DNA from: an uncultured Alphaproteobacteria bacterium
Lineage (GTDB): Bacteria; Pseudomonadota; Alphaproteobacteria; UBA7985; CAJQQZ01
Direction of reading: 5' to 3'
Assembly: GCA_905480575.1 (NCBI GenBank)
Contig: CAJQQZ010000186.1
Coordinates: 1 to 10,185 of the forward strand
DNA length: 10,185 nucleotides
Position 1 is the first letter of the stretch; every line of letters starts with the position of its first letter. Positions 135 through 8,969 of this stretch are shown here, piece by piece. The position numbers and the translations under genes were made by a program. Below the pieces are notes generated by a model. The model had not been told where the DNA came from. It ran no database searches and saw only the letters and a program-made list of their open reading frames with translations.

Positions 135-860
135 TCAGCTAAGTGGGCCGTTTGAGCCTCGTTTTAATGCGCCGAATGTCACCCCAGCTTCATGTAGCCT
201 CTCAGTTACTTGTGCTTCGTTCTCTTCCTGAAACAAATCCATTTCATCGCCCAGAGATGGTAGAGCGATATCGGCCAAACGCCAAAGGTCCATTGTGATC
301 GTTTGTGCTGTCTCCAAATCTTCCCAAAGGCGGGGACGGTAATTGCTGTCATAAACAACATACCCACCATTTTCGCGGTAAGTTGTTAAGAACTCAATCA
401 AGGCTGTCCTCGTATCGGGTGGCAACACAGCCATTGTGATACCAGAAACGTAAATCAAATCGAAATCGTTCAATGCGTTGAGTTTAATCTGACAAGGTTT
501 TGCAAAAAGAGATCTTGCCGCCGCCTGTGACCGCCAATAGGTAAAACTGCGCTCGCCAGCGTCATCTGTGTCAATGGCGTAGAGGCCCGGCATGAGGTCC
601 GGTCTTCGTTCGACATAAGATGCATCGACGTTATGGCGTTTCATATGGTCAAAAATACGGGCAGAGAACCGATCAAGGCCCAAAGCTGTCACGTAAGATA
701 CGGATTTGTTCTGGCCGCGTAGGAGGCGTGAAAGGTAGACCGCGGTGTTGTAGGTGTCTCCTGCAACACCAATGTTGGCATCAGCCGGACCATCCATGAC
801 CAGCTCAATCATAACCTCGCCAACACAAGCGATTTTGTTAATGCTTCTTTTTTTGATCAT
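135..860 (-). CDS. kdgK: 2-dehydro-3-deoxygluconokinase-like PfkB-family sugar kinase, C-terminally truncated (probable gene remnant or pseudogene)
   Basis: The translation carries KdgK hallmarks, IACVGEVMIEL, GDTYNTAVY, YVTALG, MPGLYAIDTD, GERSFTYWR and DSNYRPRLW, collinear with E. coli KdgK as recalled from memory. The ORF stops after ALKRGSNGPLS, which corresponds to about residue 237 of the ~309-aa enzyme. The ~70 C-terminal residues, including the DTTxAGD catalytic/anion-hole motif, are absent, and none of the three downstream frames encodes them. The start is taken as ATG 860 (MIKKRSINKIACVG); the tracked TTG at 914 is a likely over-extension. Confidence 0.7.
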   Translation of the reverse strand: MIKKRSINKIACVGEVMIELVMDGPADANIGVAGDTYNTAVYLSRLLRGQNKSVSYVTALGLDRFSARIFDHMKRHNVDASYVERRPDLMPGLYAIDTDDAGERSFTYWRSQAAARSLFAKPCQIKLNALNDFDLIYVSGITMAVLPPDTRTALIEFLTTYRENGGYVVYDSNYRPRLWEDLETAQTITMDLWRLADIALPSLGDEMDLFQEENEAQVTERLHEAGVTFGALKRGSNGPLS

Positions 861-1046
861 GGTTACTACATTGGAGTTTCTCGGCGGAGTATCATCTTTC
901 CGATCTGACTTCAACTCAAGCGCCGTTGGAACAAGCCAATTGGGTTGGTTGCTAAACTCACGAACGCTGGTTTTAGTGAGAATTAACCTCTATATAGATG
1001 CTCCAATTCATAGGTAAACTTCGCAACCCACAAGGACAGTTGTATT

Positions 1047-2081
1047 ATGGCAGCGACCATCGCCGCGGCGTTCTATCGTGGCAATAGAACCTTCACGGTT
1101 GAGCAAGTGCTAGCTCAAGCCCCCGGGTCAGATGAAGTAGCGATTAGGGTCGCTTACTGTGGCGTTTGCGGTACGGACATGCATGTTTACCATGGCAATA
1201 TGGACGCCAGAGTAGGGCACAACCGCATTCTCGGTCACGAGATGTCAGGTGTTGTTGATGCAATTGGTGATGGTGTCTCAGATGTAGGAGTCGGGCAAAA
1301 AGTCGTCGTTCGCCCTTTGGATCATTGTGGGGATTGTCCTGCCTGTGATGCTGGGCATCAGCATATTTGCCATAAACTCAAATTTCTCGGTCTTGATACA
1401 AACGGTGCTATGCAAGAAATCTGGATCGTGCCGTCCCATACAGTTCACGCCTTGCCAGGCACTATCCGATTGGAAGATGCGGCGCTTATCGAACCGTTGG
1501 CTGTTGCTTGTCATGCAGTACGGTTATCTGGTTTGAAGCCAGGGGAAGATGTGTTGGTGATTGGTGGTGGCCCTATTGGCATTCTAGTTGCTATGGTCGC
1601 TGGTGAGGCCGGTGGGAATGTAACTATTTCCGAAGTGAACACCAACCGGATTGCTATTGCTGAGAAGCTAAGTTTTACTGTTGTAAACCCCGCGGAAACC
1701 AACTTAGAAGAGTCTGTCAATGCCTCTACTAAGGGCAAGGGAGCAGATGTTGTTTTTGAAGTGTCAGGGACGCAAACTGGCGCGGATGCGATGACGGCTT
1801 GCGCTGCCACTCGAGCACGTCTTGTCATGGTCGCGATTCATGCAACCAAGCCAAATGTAGACCTATTTCAATTCTTCTGGCGTGAGCTGCAATTGATTGG
1901 CGCCAGAGTGTATGAGGCGAAAGATTACGAGAAGGCAATCTCTTTGATTGCATCCAACACTATTGATGCAAATACAGTGATCACAGATGTTAGGCCTTTG
2001 GAGGAAACACAAGCAGCTTTTGACGCTCTGGACAGAAATCCAACAGCTCTGAAGACACTTATCAAATTGGGTGAATTGTAA
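1047..2081 (+). CDS. Zn-dependent alcohol/polyol dehydrogenase, medium-chain dehydrogenase/reductase (MDR) superfamily (sorbitol/threonine-dehydrogenase-like)
   Basis: 344 aa. Catalytic-zinc motifs CGTD and GHEMSGVV are present, as is the structural-zinc Cys cluster CGDCPACDAGHQHIC. A Rossmann motif VIGGGPIG is present. A Shine-Dalgarno-like AAGGA lies upstream. The gene is divergent from the kdgK-like gene across a 186-bp intergenic region containing the palindromic CCAATTGG. Confidence 0.85.
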   Translation: MAATIAAAFYRGNRTFTVEQVLAQAPGSDEVAIRVAYCGVCGTDMHVYHGNMDARVGHNRILGHEMSGVVDAIGDGVSDVGVGQKVVVRPLDHCGDCPACDAGHQHICHKLKFLGLDTNGAMQEIWIVPSHTVHALPGTIRLEDAALIEPLAVACHAVRLSGLKPGEDVLVIGGGPIGILVAMVAGEAGGNVTISEVNTNRIAIAEKLSFTVVNPAETNLEESVNASTKGKGADVVFEVSGTQTGADAMTACAATRARLVMVAIHATKPNVDLFQFFWRELQLIGARVYEAKDYEKAISLIASNTIDANTVITDVRPLEETQAAFDALDRNPTALKTLIKLGEL

Positions 2082-2293
2082 TGGCTTTGTTTCCTACCCG
2101 TCTTTCGAACTCGTTGTTTGTGTTGGTGGTAGTTGGATAGCACCGCAGGATTTGCTCGCTGAGCGTAACCGGGAAATGACCGTTTCGCTTGTTCCTTGGC
2201 AAACTGAGCAAGCAGCCCCCCTATATTTGATAGCTACAAATTCAACTTTTCTCGCTACTCTTCTCCTTGAGGAAATATGTGAGGAGAAAAGAC

Positions 2294-3271
2294 ATGATTA
2301 AAAAGCTAATCAGCTCAGCCTGTGTGCTGGCATTTTTTAGCGGCGGCGCTCTCGAAGCATCGGCTCAACAACTAGAAGATTGTTATGCGACGCCAACTGT
2401 CTATAGCGGTACAACCTTAGCCAATTTGGCGGACCGATATTTCGCTGATGTCGACTATCGCTATGCTATTTTGTTGGCAACGAATGCACGGACCTCTGAC
2501 GGATTTCCGTTCATCGGAAACCCGCACCAGTTGCCTTTGGGGAAACAACTTTGTGTCCCTGCGATTACAGAAGCGGAAAGACTAAGAAACCGTTTCTTGA
2601 TGTATATCGAGGCCGTTCAAGACATGGCATTGCCCGTCCCGTCAGAGGTGACGAACAACCTTAGCCCGCTGGATGTATCAGGTCCCGTTGGTGTTGCTAC
2701 TTGGGTTCGTGCCGATCAAGCAGCCTCATATCGCGCCCAAGTGGGGCAAACGATCCAAGCTGGCGGCGATATATGGGTAACCGAGGTGCCAAAGATCCAA
2801 GAATTCTGCAAATCCTATGCGCAAACTCATGGTGACTACTTGCCAGGTATCACATTACGCCTAGAACAGAGACTAGGCATGCCGCCGCACAGTGCCAAAA
2901 CCGCATTTGTTGAGTTTGAGGTCGCAAACCCAGACAAGCAATCGCAGATCTTCAGGCCTTGTGCTTCACCATCTGTGACGACATCAACTTGCGCAATGGG
3001 ACCACCGGCTTCTTGTGATCCAGGTGACGCCCAGTGTCATCGTCATTATGATTTCTTTATGGGGCAGTATTACTATTCTTATGGGGTGTCTCTGCCAGCT
3101 GAATACCCGTGGACGTCGTTGGGTTACACCTTTGATTGGGCACATAAGGCCATCGGATTGGAAGACACGCCTGATTTTGTTCAATACGGCGGCAGTGAGT
3201 ATGTTGTGCCGAAGGGGGCGACGGTTACTGTCAGGGCCGTTTATGATACCGCGGACTATTGCAAGAATTAG
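2294..3271 (+). CDS. Secreted protein of unknown function: signal peptide, LysM-like domain, Cys-rich C-terminal domain
   Basis: GAGGAG lies 7 nt before ATG 2294. The N-terminus MIKKLISSACVLAFFSGGALEASA is a typical Sec signal peptide. Residues ~40-95 (TVYSGTTLANLADRYF...LPLGKQLCVP) resemble a LysM peptidoglycan-binding fold. The C-terminal half has a conserved-looking Cys/aromatic pattern (CASPSVTTSTCAMGPPASCDPGDAQCHRHYDFFMGQYYYSYG) with no family I can name. The tracked start at 2267 is probably too far upstream. Confidence 0.6.
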   Translation: MIKKLISSACVLAFFSGGALEASAQQLEDCYATPTVYSGTTLANLADRYFADVDYRYAILLATNARTSDGFPFIGNPHQLPLGKQLCVPAITEAERLRNRFLMYIEAVQDMALPVPSEVTNNLSPLDVSGPVGVATWVRADQAASYRAQVGQTIQAGGDIWVTEVPKIQEFCKSYAQTHGDYLPGITLRLEQRLGMPPHSAKTAFVEFEVANPDKQSQIFRPCASPSVTTSTCAMGPPASCDPGDAQCHRHYDFFMGQYYYSYGVSLPAEYPWTSLGYTFDWAHKAIGLEDTPDFVQYGGSEYVVPKGATVTVRAVYDTADYCKN

Positions 3272-3298
3272 AATCGTTTAGTTTGGATGAATGCCAGC

Positions 3299-5692
3299 TC
3301 ACGGCCAAGTGGGCTGGCAAATTTTTGCGTCAATTTTTTGGGCCAGTAAGAAAACGGAGAGCTGTGTTCCAACGCCTGAATATTGCGGGTCAACGTACCC
3401 CATGGCGAGGTTCTTATCCGATCGGTAGCCATAGGCAGCAGAAGTAATGGAACCAACGACTTTCTCGCCCTCGAAGATCGCTTCTCCGGGCTGACAGGGA
3501 GCCTCAACGCTATCAATTTCAAGGATGACACGTTGCTTTCTGTTTCCCAATGCCATTTGCTTTTCTAGACCAGCTTTGCCAACGAAGTCTTTTTTCCAGT
3601 TAACCAATTTCTCGAGACCAGCTTCAATGGGATTGAATTCAGTTATCAGATCACTTTTCCAATGACCGTAGCCCATTTCCAATCGCATTGAATCAAGCGC
3701 ATACATACCAAAGTGCGTTAAGCCCAAGGGTTCTCCGGCGTGGCAGAGTGTTTGGTAGGCTGCGAACAGTTGCTCGTTGGGAATATGAAGCTCAAAAGCC
3801 TGTTCTCCCGAAAAAGAGATGGACATGGCCAAAGCTTCAGCAATCCCAATGTGGCAGGTCCGCGCTGAAATCCATGGAAAAGCCTCAGCGCTCCAATCTG
3901 TCCTTGGGCTAACGAAGCTCATCAATTCTCGTGATTTAGGCCCAGCAATAACCAAAGTTGTGTAGGAGCCGGTCAGGCTTTTGATTTTGATGTCAGAGCC
4001 TTCGGGCAAGTGTTCTTCTAGCCAATCCCGATCATGGAATTCTGCAACCGTCGCTGAACCCCACCAAAGTTTGTCCTCTTCTAACAAAGCGAGTGTAGCT
4101 TCCCCTGAAACGTTGCCTTTGTCAGTTAGGAAATAGCAAAGGTTAACTTTGCCCGGCTTTTTTGGGACCCTTGAGCAGAGCAATGAATCAAGCCAGTTGC
4201 GCGCGCCTGATCCAGAAATCTCAAAGCGATTGAAGCCGTCGATCTCCATGATGCCCACACCGGACGTTACCGCTTCGACTTCTTTGGCAACAACAGAATG
4301 CCAATTAGGAAAGCGGTAGGTATGGTCCTCAACGAAATCAGGAGTGGGTTTAAAGAAGGTAGCGCGTTCCCAGCCGTTGATGACGGTGAACTCTGCACCC
4401 TTTTCCTTAAGGATGGGATAAAGAGATGTTGTCTTTGCAGTCCTACCGGCTGGGCGGTGCTCATGTGGCATGTGCCACTGGAACTCCATTTGGTAGTCTT
4501 CGATAGACTTAGCGATGGTGAAAGCCTTGTTGGCGTGTGTGCCAATGCGGCGTGGATCCAATGACCAGCAGTCCCATTCGGCTTCACCATGAACCATCAT
4601 CTGGGCCAGCATCTTTCCGTATCCACCACCTTCACCGATCCCGACCCGGAGGCCGTTCATCGACCAAGCGTTACGAACACCAGGTAGTTTCCCAACCAAA
4701 GGTCCGGCGTCAGCGGCGTAGGTAATCGGGCCATTGACAATAGATTGAATGCCAGCTGATCTAAGGCAAGGCAGGCGCTCAAAGATGGCTTCAATCTTTG
4801 GGAGACAACGGTCCAGATCATCGGGGCAGAGCGCATTGACGAAATCAGGATCAATGCCATCAAGGCCAAAGGTCTTACAATCGTACTCATAAACCCCGAC
4901 CAGCAGCCCTTGTTTTTCCTGGCGCATGTAGAAAGTATCGCGGGGACAGCGAACCATAGGAACTCGGTCTGGTCTAGCTGCCAGCTCTTCGATCGGTTCG
5001 GTAATAAAGTACATATGTTCCATGGAGATGATGGGGTATTCAACCGCCATGAACGCGCCGACTTCATTCACTCTGTAGCCAGCAGCGTTTACAATGTGCT
5101 CGCAATGGATGTCACCATTCTTGGTATGAACGATCCATTCGTGATTGGGTTTTTGCGTCAGGCCGATGACGGGATTGTGTCGGTAGATTTCCGCACCTGC
5201 TTTGCGGGATCGGCGTGCCAAAGCCTGACATAGTTGGGCGGGGTCAATGTCACCGTCTAAGTCATCCCATAAAGTGGCCATGACTTGATCTGTGTTGAGC
5301 AAAGGATTGCGCAATGCGGCTTCAGCGGGTGAAATCAGATCAAAATCGACGCCCATAGTTTTGGCGACCGAAATGATGTGGTGACAGGCATCCAACTGGT
5401 CTTGGTCTGTGATCAATCGCATGCCACCAACGGCATGGTGGTAGTTGATCGGGTAGTCAGGATCGTCGGCTAGTTCTTTGTAGAGCGCAATCGTGTAAGA
5501 TCTCAGCCCGATCAGAAGCTGGTTGAAAGCCAGATTGGGGCACTGTGCCGCCGAATGCCAAGTTGTCCCGGACGTTAATTCATCCCGTTCAACCAACACA
5601 ACATCGGTCCAACCCTCTTTGGTGAGGTGATATAAGGTTGAGCATCCACCGATACCGCCGCCAATAACAACGACACGGGCTTGTGTTTTCAT
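3299..5692 (-). CDS. FAD-dependent oxidoreductase fused to a GcvT-type aminomethyltransferase (tetrahydrofolate-binding) domain; dimethylglycine/sarcosine dehydrogenase family, substrate unknown
   Basis: 797 aa. The N-terminal Rossmann motif VVVIGGGIGGCSTLYHL marks an FAD-binding DAO domain. SGTTWHSAAQ matches the region carrying the covalent-flavin His in DMGDH/SARDH. The C-terminal ~350 aa has a GcvT-like layout. The start codon is 4 bp downstream of the preceding hydrolase stop, with AAGG 14 nt upstream. Confidence 0.85.
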   Translation of the reverse strand: MKTQARVVVIGGGIGGCSTLYHLTKEGWTDVVLVERDELTSGTTWHSAAQCPNLAFNQLLIGLRSYTIALYKELADDPDYPINYHHAVGGMRLITDQDQLDACHHIISVAKTMGVDFDLISPAEAALRNPLLNTDQVMATLWDDLDGDIDPAQLCQALARRSRKAGAEIYRHNPVIGLTQKPNHEWIVHTKNGDIHCEHIVNAAGYRVNEVGAFMAVEYPIISMEHMYFITEPIEELAARPDRVPMVRCPRDTFYMRQEKQGLLVGVYEYDCKTFGLDGIDPDFVNALCPDDLDRCLPKIEAIFERLPCLRSAGIQSIVNGPITYAADAGPLVGKLPGVRNAWSMNGLRVGIGEGGGYGKMLAQMMVHGEAEWDCWSLDPRRIGTHANKAFTIAKSIEDYQMEFQWHMPHEHRPAGRTAKTTSLYPILKEKGAEFTVINGWERATFFKPTPDFVEDHTYRFPNWHSVVAKEVEAVTSGVGIMEIDGFNRFEISGSGARNWLDSLLCSRVPKKPGKVNLCYFLTDKGNVSGEATLALLEEDKLWWGSATVAEFHDRDWLEEHLPEGSDIKIKSLTGSYTTLVIAGPKSRELMSFVSPRTDWSAEAFPWISARTCHIGIAEALAMSISFSGEQAFELHIPNEQLFAAYQTLCHAGEPLGLTHFGMYALDSMRLEMGYGHWKSDLITEFNPIEAGLEKLVNWKKDFVGKAGLEKQMALGNRKQRVILEIDSVEAPCQPGEAIFEGEKVVGSITSAAYGYRSDKNLAMGYVDPQYSGVGTQLSVFLLAQKIDAKICQPTWP

Positions 5693-5696
5693 CGGC

Positions 5697-6506
5697 TTAG
5701 GCTGCCTTGAGTATAGATTTAATCAGGTCACAAACCGCTTCGGGTTTATGACCAAACATAGAAAAGTGGCCCATTCCTGGAAGAACATGAAAATGTCCAT
5801 TTCCGGCGAGATCAGCGACTAGCTTCCCCCGTGCTGGTGGTGTTTGCAGGTCCTGTTCGAAAGCAACAACATGCATGGGGACTTGGCAATCAGGAAGCCT
5901 GGTTGTCGAATCATATTCGAGGCAGGCCCGCCATTGAGCGGCCATCATTCGCTGATCGCGATCTACCGATGTCATCTCCAGGTAGGACTTGCACTTTTGC
6001 CAAAGCTCATCGCTGCCTAATACCTCCGCGGGATAACAGAAGGCCGCATAATGAATGAGCGCTAGATCAGAGGGCAGCCTATTTCCGGCTTCAGCAAATA
6101 GAATTTCTGTTTCCTCCCACTCATAAAAGAAACCACTTTTTTTCGCACCAGTCCCCATCGGGATGGCAATGCGGACTAAATCAGGTTCGCTAAGGGTAAC
6201 CTCCTGCACGATCAAAGCGCCCAATGACAACCCAACGAGCACAACGGGTGGCTCACAAACTTGGCTGATAAGTTCAGCACAATCCTGCGCCATCGTTGAA
6301 ATCGGCCAGGGCGGTTGGCTAGCCGTTTCAGTTTGGCCCGCACCCCTTGGGTCAAAGGTTGTATGGCGGAAACCGTCGCCCATAAGGTCTAGAAGCTCAT
6401 TGTAGCAATCGCCGCTTTGATCGCCGCCGGGTATCCAAACAATGTCTGGCCCTTCGCCTCGCTGGCTGTACTTCAACCGGCAATCGTCTAAGTCGAGAAA
6501 AGTCAT
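5697..6506 (-). CDS. alpha/beta-fold serine hydrolase (esterase/lipase/lactonase class)
   Basis: The nucleophile elbow GLSLG (G-x-S-x-G) follows a beta-strand VVLVG. Acid and His candidates sit at FEQD and GMGHFS near the C-terminus. The start is taken at ATG 6506 (MTFLDLDD...), which overlaps the upstream gene's TGA as ATGA. The tracked 300-aa ORF extends the N-terminus into the upstream coding sequence. Confidence 0.8.
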   Translation of the reverse strand: MTFLDLDDCRLKYSQRGEGPDIVWIPGGDQSGDCYNELLDLMGDGFRHTTFDPRGAGQTETASQPPWPISTMAQDCAELISQVCEPPVVLVGLSLGALIVQEVTLSEPDLVRIAIPMGTGAKKSGFFYEWEETEILFAEAGNRLPSDLALIHYAAFCYPAEVLGSDELWQKCKSYLEMTSVDRDQRMMAAQWRACLEYDSTTRLPDCQVPMHVVAFEQDLQTPPARGKLVADLAGNGHFHVLPGMGHFSMFGHKPEAVCDLIKSILKAA

Positions 6507-7501
6507 TTGTTTGAACTTGCCATTCTTTGACGGCGCTCGCGGATTACCTCGTGCGCTTCCGGTGTACCGTCGTGGAACGAGCCAAACCATTTGTCCCAAG
6601 GAATCTCCAGCGAGCCGTAGTTACAATCAAAGTAACGGTGGTGCATTTGGTGATGGAAGGTGCCTAACGACAGTCTTGTCTTGTCCTTGATCACAACGCC
6701 TTCAAAGCCACAGTGTGTCGTCGCGGCTGTCAAAGCAAAGTACTGTAAATGGAACAGAATGTGGATTGGGTGACAAGCGACAACGAAGTGGATCACAACA
6801 CTGCCTAAGAAGAATAGATGTTCCAATGGATGCATTGAAAGCCCTGACCAAGGCCCGACGTTTATGTTTCGATGGTGTAGGGAATGCGCTGTTTTGTATA
6901 ATGCTGGAACGTGGAAAAGACGGTGCATCCAGTAAAAGTAAAAAGACTCCCAGATTGGGATAAGGAAGAAAAGAACTACAAACCAGATTGGGTTAGCAGC
7001 CCAGGTAATCATCGGCGCATAACCATTAGCCAAAGCCCAAAACATTAAAGCCTCAAAAGCCGTCCAGATCGCAACACCGCTTCCTAATGTCCAAAACATG
7101 TTGTCCCAGACTTGGTTTTTAAGGGTGAATGATCGATTAGATTTCGCGAGGTCCCGAGGGTCATACTTCTTCTCTTTTCCCTGCTTCTTGAAAGTATAGA
7201 AAAAGAGGTGAAGAGACCCAGCAACAAGTGTCATGAGGATTATGTTTCTGACCCACATCTCAAACACCCAATCAAAGGCCCAGGTTTGACTGCGTTCAAA
7301 GGCGGGTTGAAAGTAGAACCAGGATATGCAGGCGACAGCGACAAGAATCAGCCGCTCGGAAATCAAGAACCAAGACCGCCAAAACCAAAGAAATATGTCG
7401 ATGGGCCTGAACGGCAGTCTAAAGACGGGAGAGACTTTTACAGGAACCGCGGGCATATAATGCCAGCCCGATATGCGCTTCCTTTCTTTATCATCAGCCA
7501 T
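6503..7501 (-). CDS. Integral-membrane di-iron oxygenase of the fatty acid hydroxylase superfamily (annotated in bacteria as sterol desaturase family)
   Basis: Three histidine boxes lie in the characteristic order and spacing: HRLFH, HSLHH and HHQMHH. Multiple hydrophobic Trp/Phe-rich segments are consistent with four or more transmembrane helices. A strong RBS AAGGAG lies 6 nt before ATG 7501 (MADDKERK...); the tracked TTG at 7537 is a likely over-extension. Confidence 0.8.
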   Translation of the reverse strand: MADDKERKRISGWHYMPAVPVKVSPVFRLPFRPIDIFLWFWRSWFLISERLILVAVACISWFYFQPAFERSQTWAFDWVFEMWVRNIILMTLVAGSLHLFFYTFKKQGKEKKYDPRDLAKSNRSFTLKNQVWDNMFWTLGSGVAIWTAFEALMFWALANGYAPMITWAANPIWFVVLFFLIPIWESFYFYWMHRLFHVPALYKTAHSLHHRNINVGPWSGLSMHPLEHLFFLGSVVIHFVVACHPIHILFHLQYFALTAATTHCGFEGVVIKDKTRLSLGTFHHQMHHRYFDCNYGSLEIPWDKWFGSFHDGTPEAHEVIRERRQRMASSNK

Positions 7502-7541
7502 GGCTTTCTCCTTTCTCGCACTATGGCAAAAGGGCAATGGT

Positions 7542-7569
7542 TTGAAAAACAGAAAATTATGGTTATCAT
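7542..7569 (+). promoter_or_regulatory. Putative sigma70-type promoter of the LysR gene: TTGAAA, 16-bp spacer, TATCAT
   Basis: Read directly: TTGAAA at 7542-7547 and TATCAT at 7564-7569 with 16-bp spacing. Not experimentally supported. Confidence 0.35.
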
Positions 7570-7587
7570 CATCAAATTATTTGATGA
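7569..7587. promoter_or_regulatory. LysR-type binding motif ATC-N9-GAT (T-N11-A) embedded in the inverted repeat TCATCAA-N5-TTGATGA
   Basis: Perfect 7-bp arms with an AT-rich spacer sit between the divergent LysR gene and the oxygenase operon, just downstream of the putative lysR -10. This is the classic location of an autoregulatory/recognition site. Confidence 0.5.
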
Positions 7588-8523
7588 ATGGAGGAACTCT
7601 TGCGCCTTAGCTTAAAAGCTCTGAACTATTTTTTGAAAGCTGTTGAGCACGGTAGCCTCGCTAGCGCAGCAAAGGAGCTAAATGTCGTTCCGTCTGCGGT
7701 GTCAGCAGCGATTGACCAAGTGGAAGAGGAATTCGATCTCAAACTTTTGATTCGCTATCCCTCGCGCGGCATTCAACCGACGGCAACCGGGCAAAGGTTA
7801 CTAGGCAAAATCAAGCGTTTGATCGAGGAATATGAAAGTCTGCTCATCGAGGGTGGTGATTTGAAATCAGCTCTGACCGGGACACTAAGAGTTGGCTATT
7901 ACGCGCCGGTGGCACCTGCTTTTATGCCAACTATTGTGGCGCCTTTGCTTAAGGAGAACAAAGGCGTGTCTTTCAAGTTTGTTGAATGTAACAATGAGAC
8001 TGCACAGCTGGGGCTTTTATCAGGTGAATTTGACGTCATTCTATTTGTGGCCGAGAATGTAAAACCTGGCATCAGTTATGAGACTTTGCTCCAACCCAAA
8101 GCATATGTTTTGACATCTGCCACTAGCGACTTGGCATCGCAAGCAGTTGTGTCCATGCAAAATCTCAAGAATGAACCCCTCGTCTTGCTCGATCTTCCGG
8201 TGATTGGAGAATACTACAACAGCCTTTTTGAAGCAGCAGGGATTGAGCCGAATATTGTGGCGACAGCGTCAACGACAGAAATGGTTCGCTCATTGGTTGG
8301 AGCTGGGATTGGAAGCTCGATCCTTAATATGAAACCGTTGAATGAAGTTTCCTATGCGGGAAGCAGCTTAATTGCTGTGCCGATTGAGCCCGAAGTGAAG
8401 TCACTGAAACTGGTCTTGGGTTATGTCGATGAGAAACTAAGACGCTTGGTCCAAGCTTTTGTCGACGAGTGTCGGCAATATTTCGGTTCTTCTAAGGCTC
8501 GTGAGATTGTTGTTGAAGCCTAA
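7588..8523 (+). CDS. LysR-type transcriptional regulator (LTTR)
   Basis: The N-terminal HTH (LKALNYFLKAVEHGSLASAAKELNVVPSAVSAAIDQVEEEFDLKLLIR) matches the LTTR signature, followed by a periplasmic-binding-protein-like co-inducer domain. It is divergent from the operon. The real start may be the in-frame TTG at 7600, preceded by GGAGG 7591-7595, rather than ATG 7588. Confidence 0.85.
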   Translation: MEELLRLSLKALNYFLKAVEHGSLASAAKELNVVPSAVSAAIDQVEEEFDLKLLIRYPSRGIQPTATGQRLLGKIKRLIEEYESLLIEGGDLKSALTGTLRVGYYAPVAPAFMPTIVAPLLKENKGVSFKFVECNNETAQLGLLSGEFDVILFVAENVKPGISYETLLQPKAYVLTSATSDLASQAVVSMQNLKNEPLVLLDLPVIGEYYNSLFEAAGIEPNIVATASTTEMVRSLVGAGIGSSILNMKPLNEVSYAGSSLIAVPIEPEVKSLKLVLGYVDEKLRRLVQAFVDECRQYFGSSKAREIVVEA

Positions 8524-8814: not shown

Positions 8815-8900
8815 CTAAATGTTCTCGAATGGTTAAAGAGGATCGATTTGATATCGATTGGCAAACGCCTTTGTGGGTTCGAATCCCATCATTTAGACCA
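8815..8900 (+). tRNA. Class II tRNA-like gene, Ser(TGA)-like, atypical
   Basis: Manual cloverleaf: acceptor CTAAATG/CATTTAG (7 Watson-Crick pairs, AT-rich, C1-G72), U8, a 3-bp D stem CTC/GAG with D-loop GAATGGTTAAA (the GG is present). The anticodon stem ATCGA/TCGAT carries loop TTTGATA, giving anticodon TGA with U33 but a pyrimidine at position 37. A long variable arm holds a GGC-AAAC-GCC hairpin. The T arm is GTGGG-TTCGAAT-CCCAT, the discriminator is A and CCA is encoded. Not run through tRNAscan. Confidence 0.5.
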
Positions 8901-8969
8901 TAGGTAGCTCAACGGTAGAGCATCAGATCGTTAATCTGAGGGTTGAAGGTTCGATTCCTTCTCTAAGCA
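8898..8969 (+). tRNA. tRNA-Asn(GTT)-like element, probably degenerate (pseudo-tRNA); its 5' end overlaps the CCA of the preceding tRNA-like gene
   Basis: The D arm GCTC-AACGGTA-GAGC is canonical. The anticodon stem TCAGA/TCTGA carries loop TCGTTAA, giving anticodon GTT but C at position 33. The variable loop is 5 nt. The T arm GAAGG-TTCGATT-CCTTC is canonical. The acceptor CCATAGG/TCTAAGC pairs at only 5 of 7 positions, with C1-C72 and A3-A70 mismatches, and no encoded CCA follows. Confidence 0.35.

Follow-up and report, generated by a model that had tools for sequence, protein, structure and literature searches.

Positions 1 to 10,185 of contig CAJQQZ010000186.1 of an uncultured member of the Alphaproteobacteria, a stretch referred to here in its full length as the window, carry on the minus strand, at 3299-7501, three tightly packed genes for a membrane di-iron oxygenase, a serine hydrolase and a protein of the dimethylglycine dehydrogenase (DMGDH) family, with the gene of a LysR-type transcriptional regulator (LTTR) divergent from them on the plus strand. 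Judging from sequence comparison, the closest known relative of the oxygenase is MocD of the rhizobial rhizopine system, and not alkylglycerol monooxygenase (AGMO), a sterol desaturase or a fatty-acid hydroxylase. By the same kind of evidence, the conserved core of the locus is the divergent pair of LysR and oxygenase genes, and the triad is a lineage-specific construction and not a conserved module. Our reading, which we hold tentatively and at slightly less than an even chance, is that the operon serves in the breakdown, by the removal of one-carbon (C1) units, of a small methylated amine or onium compound soluble in water, i.e., a betaine-type osmolyte.

Gene order and protein families

The first gene of the operon (6503-7501, minus strand) encodes a predicted 332-aa membrane di-iron oxygenase of the MocD family, within the FA_hydroxylase superfamily. 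It is followed by the gene for a 269-aa alpha/beta-fold serine hydrolase (5697-6506, minus strand, with its ATG at 6506) and by that for a 797-aa DMGDH/SARDH-family N-methyl dehydrogenase dependent on flavin adenine dinucleotide (FAD) and tetrahydrofolate (3299-5692, minus strand). The divergent regulator gene (7588-8523, plus strand) gives a 311-aa product from the ATG at 7588; the metagenome gene calls start it at a TTG at 7600 and give 307 aa. All of these features were found where the first-pass annotation had placed them, and the close packing that it had described held up. The TGA of the oxygenase gene (6505-6503) is shared with the ATG of the hydrolase gene (6506-6504) in an ATGA overlap at 6503-6506, which reads aaATGAct on the minus strand, and the hydrolase TAA (5699-5697) is separated from the DMGDH-family ATG at 5692 by the four nucleotides gccg (4-nt gap, 5692-5697). 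A mechanical list of open reading frames gave longer starts for the oxygenase (TTG 7537) and the hydrolase (TTG 6599). We preferred the shorter ATG starts: an AGGAGA Shine-Dalgarno sequence precedes the oxygenase ATG at 7501, the N-termini of homologs are concordant with this start and with the hydrolase start at 6506, and the 332-aa oxygenase and 269-aa hydrolase were called independently on three contigs.

A terminator scan of the span found no terminator-like site between the three operon genes, its sole minus-strand match being a weak 5-pair stem (6960-6948) within the oxygenase gene. From the spacing we infer that the oxygenase, hydrolase and DMGDH-family genes are co-transcribed. The end of the transcription unit is likely to be a GC-rich hairpin of 11 pairs at 3292-3319, found by the terminator scan and in the sequence between the DMGDH-family gene and a convergent hypothetical gene; because its T-run lies on the plus strand only, its role as the terminator of the operon is put forward with more caution. 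Scanned with Rfam, the window gave only two tRNAs, both outside the operon, and neither a riboswitch nor any other RNA element within it.

Pfam domains bore out the three family assignments of the first-pass annotation. For the oxygenase, PF04116 (FA_hydroxylase) scored 76.7 bits against a cutoff of 31 (E 2.8e-21). Its histidine boxes H193RLFH197, H206SLHH210 and H283HQMHH288, together with H224 and H228, are invariant in 16 homologs, and the mean column identity over 16 diverse sequences is 75%. Four hydrophobic 19-residue segments are predicted (44-62, 86-104, 165-190 and 228-249), and the AlphaFold2 model has long helices, both in keeping with an integral membrane protein. That model is mediocre (mean predicted local distance difference test score of 66), and a Foldseek search with it against the PDB returned nothing below E 0.9; single-sequence and profile searches likewise found no PDB relative of the oxygenase. 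No NCBIfam model reached its cutoff for the oxygenase, the hydrolase or the DMGDH-family protein. Our literature searches found no paper on this oxygenase family, and in the accessible part of the supplement to the Ruegeria pomeroyi N-osmolyte proteome there is no "sterol desaturase" entry.

A translated search of plasmids retrieved full-length paralogs of the oxygenase at 37-40% identity on those of rhizobia. The copy in Rhizobium binae lies in the order LacI, "sterol desaturase family protein", MocE-family 2Fe-2S ferredoxin, FAD oxidoreductase, sugar isomerase and sugar ABC transporter. It is 37% identical to the window oxygenase over 327 aligned residues (E 4e-75), with common motifs well beyond the histidine boxes, and the ferredoxin next to it passes the MocE family model with 184.9 bits against a cutoff of 136. 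The copy on pSymA of Sinorhizobium meliloti is 38% identical to the window oxygenase and adjoins a LacI gene; its context (LacI, an insertion sequence (IS) element, molybdopterin dehydrogenase and a KaiC/HWE kinase) adds nothing beyond the link of LacI to mocD. A further homolog, on a Rhizobium tropici megaplasmid, is 40% identical and unannotated. LacI-adjacent clusters on plasmids of S. meliloti, Rhizobium etli and Rhizobium leguminosarum have been described as mocDEF, which functions in rhizopine catabolism (PMC3538637; see also PMC10107442 and PMC5789663). MocD is taken as the closest known relative because of the end-to-end homology to the R. binae protein, the ferredoxin next door that passes the MocE model and the description of mocDEF in PMC3538637. 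The ornithine-lipid hydroxylase OlsE, which the literature places in the same superfamily, was also considered as a counterpart and seems less likely, as the solute-type partners of the oxygenase orthologs argue against it.

The hydrolase matches Abhydrolase_6 (8e-16) and also Abhydrolase_1. Its catalytic triad is intact, with the nucleophile elbow G92-L-S94-L-G96, Asp219 and His247 all invariant in 14 homologs. The best solved relative is BpoC/Rv0554 (2e-21), which, like the PcaD-type hydrolases, has the alpha/beta fold and Ser-Asp-His triad in common with the window protein. All of the curated models, those of PcaD-type lactonases and of esterases included, score far below cutoff. Homologs at 50-64% identity are comparatively rare (234 matches), and the closer ones among them have neighbours of several kinds. 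One adjoins MttB and a cupin; one of 60% identity ends a carnitine-type cluster with a CdhR-like AraC regulator, BKACE, 3HCDH and a binding protein; and others belong to units of the order LysR - GNAT - hydrolase that are surrounded by genes for MttB, DddL-like, DAO and creatinase proteins. MttB fell within the fetched hydrolase locus on six distinct contigs. These contexts are weakly suggestive of an esterase acting on a betaine-type conjugate. The acylcarnitine hydrolase HocS is an analogue by position only, through the 60% homolog at the end of the carnitine-type cluster.

For the DMGDH-family protein, DAO (1.4e-53), FAO_M, GCV_T (2.4e-52) and GCV_T_C all score above their cutoffs, and the protein aligns from end to end with the DMGDH of rat and human (E 5e-143). 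It has the same full-length four-domain layout as mammalian DMGDH (4pab, 5l46) and Arthrobacter dimethylglycine oxidase (1pj5), including the flavinylation-motif histidine and the GcvT folate domain. The window motif GTTWHSAA aligns with GSTWHAAG of rat DMGDH, and the conserved histidine of this TWHAAG motif is one that we take to be the site of the covalent link to FAD in the rat enzyme. The orthogroup is found, at 65-72% identity, across Roseobacters and some Gammaproteobacteria. It differs from the known DMGDH systems in that its members are normally LysR-controlled single genes outside any canonical betaine cluster. Roseobacters moreover have several paralogs, and those located by the oxygenase elsewhere are only 38% and 52% identical to the window's. 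In Roseovarius nubinhibens, Dinoroseobacter sp. S375 and Ruegeria sp. YS9 the ortholog is divergently paired with a LysR of 311-323 aa; two further orthologs adjoin unrelated LysRs, one of them (72%) together with an OpuAC-type ABC transporter and a different hydrolase. In Ruegeria sp. YS9, a stretch that starts some 1 kb downstream of this pair (L165 9532-13309) was also observed to contain an AraC regulator, another FA_hydroxylase of 275 aa, an S-adenosylmethionine-dependent methyltransferase and a BHMT-family S-methyltransferase, the last of these 4 kb from the DMGDH ortholog.

Regulators and the intergenic region

The divergent LTTR with its box, as proposed in the first-pass annotation, was recovered in full. 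The window regulator contains HTH_1 (4e-16) and LysR_substrate (5e-26) Pfam domains, is divergently oriented and faces an intergenic T-N11-A dyad, which together are the features by which an LTTR is recognized; no NCBIfam equivalog scored above cutoff for it. The dyad lies within a perfect 9+9 palindrome, TCATCAAAT-T-ATTTGATGA, at 7569-7587, a putative LTTR recognition site, and the chance expectation of such a palindrome in the 86-nt intergenic region is about 3e-4. A promoter scan placed a sigma-70-like promoter for the LysR gene on the plus strand at 7542-7569 (TTGAAA-16-TATCAT, 10 of 12 matches), and this promoter overlaps the box TGAAAAACAG (7543-7552, plus strand), which on the operon strand reads CTGTTTTTCA.

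Both elements recur beyond the window. The LysR-oxygenase intergenic regions of about 45 species have a palindrome by the LysR start, which takes the form TCTGA-N3-TCAGA in Roseobacters, and a ACTGTTTTTCA box about 40 nt beyond the palindrome; the window carries the two together. The CTGTTTTTCA box is also present in the intergenic regions between LysR and the DMGDH orthologs of Roseovarius and Ruegeria, in the versions AATTCTGTTTTTCAAAA and CATTCAGTTTTTCAAAA, respectively, such that a TTCTGTTTTTCAAA box is common to the promoter regions of the oxygenase and of the DMGDH orthologs.

The regulators themselves give a similar picture. The window LysR is 46-57% identical to regulators divergent from oxygenase orthologs and 48-51% identical to those divergent from DMGDH orthologs, and the DMGDH-paired LysRs are about 40% identical to the oxygenase-paired LysRs of Roseobacters. 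In a neighbour-joining tree without support values, the oxygenase-paired and DMGDH-paired regulators form one subfamily against other LysRs, with the window and Pelagibius regulators grouping on the DMGDH side. The LysRs of the two modules are paralogs with a common promoter box, and the operon is probably regulated by its divergent LysR.

Distribution of the triad and genomic partners of the oxygenase

We searched 80 species-level genome loci carrying the oxygenase at 64-88% identity with all of the window proteins (530 confirmed loci exist). The identical triad was found on other contigs of the same species, including one of 778 kb. Among the 80 loci, a divergent LysR of the same subfamily was present in 44 and the hydrolase lay beside the oxygenase in a single one (L006, from a sister lineage), and none had a window-type DMGDH ortholog. 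The first-pass annotation had proposed the triad as a module and had itself named the lack of its synteny in related genomes as the result that would speak for a fortuitous adjacency; with the hydrolase in 1 of 80 loci and the DMGDH ortholog in 0 of 80, the proposal of a conserved module therefore fell on its own terms.

L006 is the closest relative of the window, with an oxygenase 88% identical to the window's. Its gene order, LysR - oxygenase - hydrolase - Zn-dependent alcohol dehydrogenase - PfkB, is that of the window minus the DMGDH-family gene and the hypothetical gene at 2267-3271. The hydrolase of the sister lineage is read in two frames, as products of 202 aa and 87 aa (L006 1552-2350; L114 948-1568). 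The same split is found on 7 and 10 independent contigs, so that it represents a real frameshift and not an assembly error, and the hydrolase is thus decaying in that lineage. A metagenome scan with a hydrolase profile yielded 72 loci, none with a DMGDH-family gene near the hydrolase and one with an oxygenase near it, again from the sister lineage. The neighbours of oxygenase orthologs are highly variable, with 1340 proteins falling into 1033 clusters, and many same-strand neighbours that were considered as partners proved to have housekeeping functions (Obg, ProB, ProA, DnaX, P-type ATPase).

Against this variable background, some partners recur beside orthologs of 58-71% identity to the window oxygenase. 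In Paracoccus alcaliphilus, the LysR-divergent oxygenase gene is followed by genes for a TauA-like binding protein, a 2Fe-2S ferredoxin and a ferredoxin reductase, and in Mesorhizobium by genes for a PanB-like protein, a ferredoxin, a reductase and a DddL-like cupin. The oxygenases of both are 58-59% orthologs of the window's, and their ferredoxin is of the Fer2 type, not the MocE type. A reductase also follows the oxygenase in L014 and L055. A PanB-like gene (Pantoate_transf) stands directly after the oxygenase gene in 15 of the 80 species and in Pelagibius (this order is seen at L010, L013, L014, L017, L025, L026, L028, L032, L035, L039, L040, L051, L053, L054, L078, L005 and L168). The members of this PanB-like orthogroup are 67-75% mutually identical, with an N-terminus that diverges and with scores that do not reach the cutoff of the NCBIfam panB model. 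A related cassette was seen on the Phaeobacter inhibens plasmid pDOK1-1-2 (L170 7311-9793), where a LysR is divergent from genes for a MIOX-family (HD-domain) oxygenase, an FA_hydroxylase paralog 45% identical to the window oxygenase and a PanB-like protein, the whole being IS3-flanked; it resembles the two-step logic of hydroxylation followed by cleavage in PhnY/PhnZ-type pathways.

Other orthologs lie beside enzymes of N-methyl metabolism. Two loci (L009 and L019) have, next to a LysR, the order MttB - DMGDH-like (38% to the window protein) - oxygenase with gaps of 10 nt and 98 nt, and in Marivita (L060) MttB is divergent from a DMGDH-like gene (52% to the window protein) followed by the oxygenase; neither MtgC nor MtgD was found at these MttB-DMGDH-oxygenase loci. 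The MttB-family protein MtgB is a component of the aerobic glycine betaine demethylase of R. pomeroyi, and genes for the later demethylations are often located nearby (PMC12478193). In Thalassobium (L012), the oxygenase gene is followed by those for a DAO-type flavoenzyme and a TRAP transporter, and in Planktomarina it is divergent from a TauABC-like transporter. Next to the Planktomarina oxygenase there is also a 60% ortholog of the TauA-like binding protein whose gene comes after the DMGDH ortholog in Roseovarius. A binding protein associated with the Mesorhizobium oxygenase is a TauA equivalog (325 bits against a cutoff of 304), and its 66% ortholog is encoded within the oxygenase operon of Paracoccus. 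The partners of the oxygenase orthologs included no lipase, glycerol or fatty-acid genes. Taken together, the orthogroup occurs time and again with N-methyl/folate-C1 enzymes, with transporters of small polar solutes and with proteins of electron transfer.

On the Paracoccus and Mesorhizobium plasmids, we also observed complete-looking C3-sulfonate/cysteate gene sets beside the oxygenase clusters (L167 11449-14987 and L168 1-5164), comprising CuyA, CuyB, a DegT-type aminotransferase, a HisD/HpsN-like dehydrogenase and TauABC. CuyA scores 549 bits against a cutoff of 450 and CuyB 280 against 190.

Of the genes that flank the operon, one encodes a KdgK-like PfkB kinase (135-914, minus strand), which scores 236 bits where the model requires 400, and another a Zn-dependent alcohol dehydrogenase (1047-2081, plus strand), which has equal, below-cutoff scores on the threonine dehydrogenase and scyllo-inosose dehydrogenase models; both genes are kept beside the cluster in the sister lineage. 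The gene at 2267-3271 (plus strand), convergent with the DMGDH-family gene, encodes a hypothetical protein of 334 aa with a hydrophobic, signal-peptide-like N-terminus and no Pfam or NCBIfam match, and it is missing from L006 along with the DMGDH-family gene. On the other side, a tRNA-Ser(TGA) and a tRNA-Asn(GTT) (8815-8969, plus strand) abut with no spacer, ARAGORN overlapping them by 3 nt, in a 700-nt gap between the LysR gene and the SPFH/Band7 gene. The 778-kb contig has an IS66 transposase breaking up the Band7 region just past this gap and, on the other side, an rve-type transposase after PfkB. With tRNAs and transposases flanking it, the block from LysR to PfkB may therefore be an island.

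Candidate pathway and competing explanations

The operon is best read as the fusion of two units that stand alone in most marine Alphaproteobacteria, namely LysR divergent from a MocD-family oxygenase and LysR divergent from a DMGDH-family dehydrogenase. An ancestral LysR-oxygenase unit would have gained the hydrolase, which is also in the sister lineage, and the DMGDH ortholog would have been gained in the window lineage only. The serine hydrolase between the two units is of a kind that occurs in catabolic islands for betaines and methylamines. In the pathway that we propose, the oxygenase would receive electrons from a ferredoxin and a reductase encoded elsewhere and hydroxylate a methyl carbon or a carbon adjacent to a heteroatom, upon which formaldehyde or the substituent would leave, as proposed for MocD acting on 3-O-methyl-scyllo-inosamine. 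The hydrolase would open an ester or lactone bond, and the DMGDH-type enzyme would oxidise a remaining N-methyl group and hand the C1 unit to tetrahydrofolate. We infer both the single pathway and the chemistry of each step. That the genes share a pathway seems on balance the better supposition because of the tight coupling, the paralogous regulators with their common box, the type of binding protein common to both modules and the independent MttB-DMGDH-oxygenase operons.

The system that most resembles this one is mocDEF. MocDEF was reportedly modelled by Bahar et al. in 1998 as a ferredoxin oxygenase converting 3-O-methyl-scyllo-inosamine to scyllo-inosamine, i.e., as O-demethylating a soluble compound. 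MocD has the same architecture as the window oxygenase, with 37% identity over 332 residues and the same histidine boxes and flanking motifs. The orthologs of the window oxygenase come, as MocD does, with a 2Fe-2S ferredoxin and an FAD reductase, and both systems would be expressed from an inducible catabolic promoter beside a dedicated regulator. The differences are that the regulator is LacI or MocR there and LysR-type here, that the ferredoxin is of the Rieske MocE type there and the plant-type Fer2 in the orthologs here, that the electron-transfer genes are adjacent there and absent beside the window copy, and that inositol and sugar gene partners there are replaced here by DMGDH-family, MttB, PanB-like and TauA-like ones; the substrate is certainly different. 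A parallel in function is offered by the glycine betaine monooxygenase GbcAB/BmoAB, the stachydrine demethylase Stc2 and the carnitine monooxygenase CntAB, in which an O2-dependent hydroxylation fed by ferredoxin and reductase takes place at or next to the N-methyl of a quaternary amine, formaldehyde or an amine is released, and flavin/folate demethylases follow. The likeness of these Rieske enzymes to the oxygenase lies in the proposed function only, as they are soluble Rieske/mononuclear iron proteins of a fold and cofactor unrelated to those of a membrane di-iron histidine-box protein.

Several observations weigh against an operon dedicated to the degradation of a methylated amine. The triad is confined to contigs of this one species. 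The hydrolase is split and the DMGDH-family gene absent in the sister lineage, and therefore neither is required with the oxygenase there. Most oxygenase orthologs are monocistronic with unrelated neighbourhoods, and where the oxygenase and the DMGDH ortholog both occur (Dinoroseobacter S375) they are on separate contigs. Three different DMGDH paralogs adjoin the oxygenase (the 38%, the 52% and the window type), so that the oxygenase is not tied to any single orthogroup. On the 778-kb contig, no MocE/MocF-type or Fer2-type ferredoxin or reductase is encoded within 10 kb of the window oxygenase, and the sulfonate genes at some ortholog loci (CuyA, CuyB, HisD/HpsN-like and TauA) speak for sulfonates and not for carboxy-betaines. 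Finally, the O-demethylating role of MocD is itself said to come from the genetic model of Bahar et al. Much of this is what one would expect of an opportunistic operon, in which the genes are co-transcribed in this lineage with no common substrate, the hydrolase and DMGDH-family genes having landed downstream by insertion or deletion and borrowing the promoter. The restriction of the triad to one species and the sister lineage with its decayed hydrolase and no DMGDH-family gene both fit this explanation, as do the LysR that DMGDH orthologs normally have of their own, the tRNA genes and IS elements flanking the block, and the variable oxygenase neighbourhoods around a LysR-oxygenase unit with a function of its own, conserved in hundreds of species. 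However, the ATGA overlap and the 4-nt spacing indicate selection for coupled expression, DMGDH-family, MttB and DAO genes recur by oxygenase orthologs in independent arrangements, and the paralogous regulators with a common box, as well as the binding-protein type common to both modules, also speak against it. We therefore regard an opportunistic operon as somewhat unlikely, while according it real weight.

Other explanations accept a common pathway and differ in the substrate. If it were glycine betaine or a related carboxy-betaine, the oxygenase would be an O2-dependent, cobalamin-independent N-demethylase like GbcAB/BmoAB, the DMGDH-family protein a true dimethylglycine dehydrogenase, and the LysRs sensors of betaine and dimethylglycine, which would suit the paralogy of regulators for two similar ligands. 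The operons of an MtgB-type MttB, a DMGDH-like protein and the oxygenase, when read with PMC12478193, point in this direction, together with the full-length similarity to mammalian DMGDH, the OpuAC-type transporter beside the 72% DMGDH ortholog and the BHMT-family gene near the YS9 ortholog. On such a route, though, the hydrolase has no role and the PanB-like partner goes unexplained, the first demethylation is already covered by MttB in the MttB operons, and the sulfonate genes and TauA-type binding proteins by the oxygenase in Paracoccus and Mesorhizobium are out of place; we think this route unlikely. Those same sulfonate associations would be accounted for if the substrate were a taurine- or cysteinolate-type sulfonate with N-methyl groups (N-methyl-, dimethyl- or trimethyltaurine and the like), demethylated by the oxygenase and the DMGDH-type enzyme before desulfonation. 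This draws on the TauA equivalog of Mesorhizobium and its ortholog in the Paracoccus operon, on the TauA-like binding proteins by the DMGDH ortholog in Roseovarius and the oxygenase in Planktomarina, and on CuyA, CuyB and a HisD/HpsN-like dehydrogenase nearby in 4 loci. It is the more improbable of the two substrates, with the association found in few of about 85 loci, no sulfonate gene anywhere in the window or up to 10 kb away on the 778-kb contig, and MttB partners that point to carboxy-betaines.

Among the candidates of the first-pass annotation was a lipid. On that route, the oxygenase would cleave a glyceryl ether in the manner of AGMO or hydroxylate the acyl chain of a betaine lipid (of the DGTS, or diacylglyceryltrimethylhomoserine, type) or acyl-betaine, the hydrolase would deacylate it and the DMGDH-type enzyme would demethylate the head group. 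Membership in the FA_hydroxylase superfamily, with the histidine-box di-iron chemistry that the oxygenase has in common with AGMO/TMEM195, is compatible with this, as are the intact serine hydrolase and the hydrolase homolog ending a carnitine-type cluster, where an acylcarnitine esterase would fit. Beyond the superfamily, however, no specific similarity to AGMO was found. AGMO uses tetrahydrobiopterin, whereas the window oxygenase's orthologs come with ferredoxin and reductase, and the window protein groups with MocD-type bacterial proteins and has no lipid-related partners. Its closest characterised relative, MocD, acts on a soluble substrate; the partners are ferredoxin, reductase, small-solute binding proteins and PanB-like proteins, and not lipase, glycerol or fatty-acid genes; DMGDH-type enzymes take tertiary or secondary amines, not a quaternary head group; and the triad is not conserved. 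We consequently see very little chance that the lipid or ether substrate is correct. The broader theme of that annotation, the catabolism of an N-methylated compound, fared better, being supported by the MttB-DMGDH-like-oxygenase operons in three species, the hydrolase contexts and the paralogy of the LysRs, and it is the theme retained in our reading of the operon as acting on a small methylated amine or onium compound.

What is new here is the combination of genes and the recognition of a widespread, strongly conserved module of LysR and a MocD-like oxygenase; the families of all the genes are known, and catabolic operons under an LTTR are commonplace. At least 530 species-level genomes, most of them of marine Rhodobacterales, carry the LysR-paired oxygenase. 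Methylated osmolytes (glycine betaine, choline, carnitine, methylated taurines) carry a large flux of carbon, nitrogen and C1 units between phytoplankton and marine bacteria, and Roseobacter enzymes for the first steps of their degradation continue to be discovered; the cobalamin-dependent MtgBCD, for one, was not described until 2025 (PMC12478193, where GbcAB is also cited). A bolder proposal, and in our estimation a doubtful one, is that this LysR-paired, MocD-like enzyme represents a so far unrecognised demethylase of one of the major methylated osmolytes of the sea (glycine betaine, methylated taurine or another betaine), a membrane di-iron protein dependent on O2 but not on cobalamin that would act upstream of or alongside the DMGDH-type and MttB/MtgB systems, with the window operon as the clearest genomic statement of the pathway. 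If the oxygenase is not a demethylase, the operon would be an ordinary lineage-specific catabolic cluster. If it is an O2-dependent, B12-independent one, the way in which osmolyte turnover is read from marine metagenomes would change, and the genomic context provides a short list of strains, partner proteins and candidate substrates with which the function of the oxygenase may be settled.

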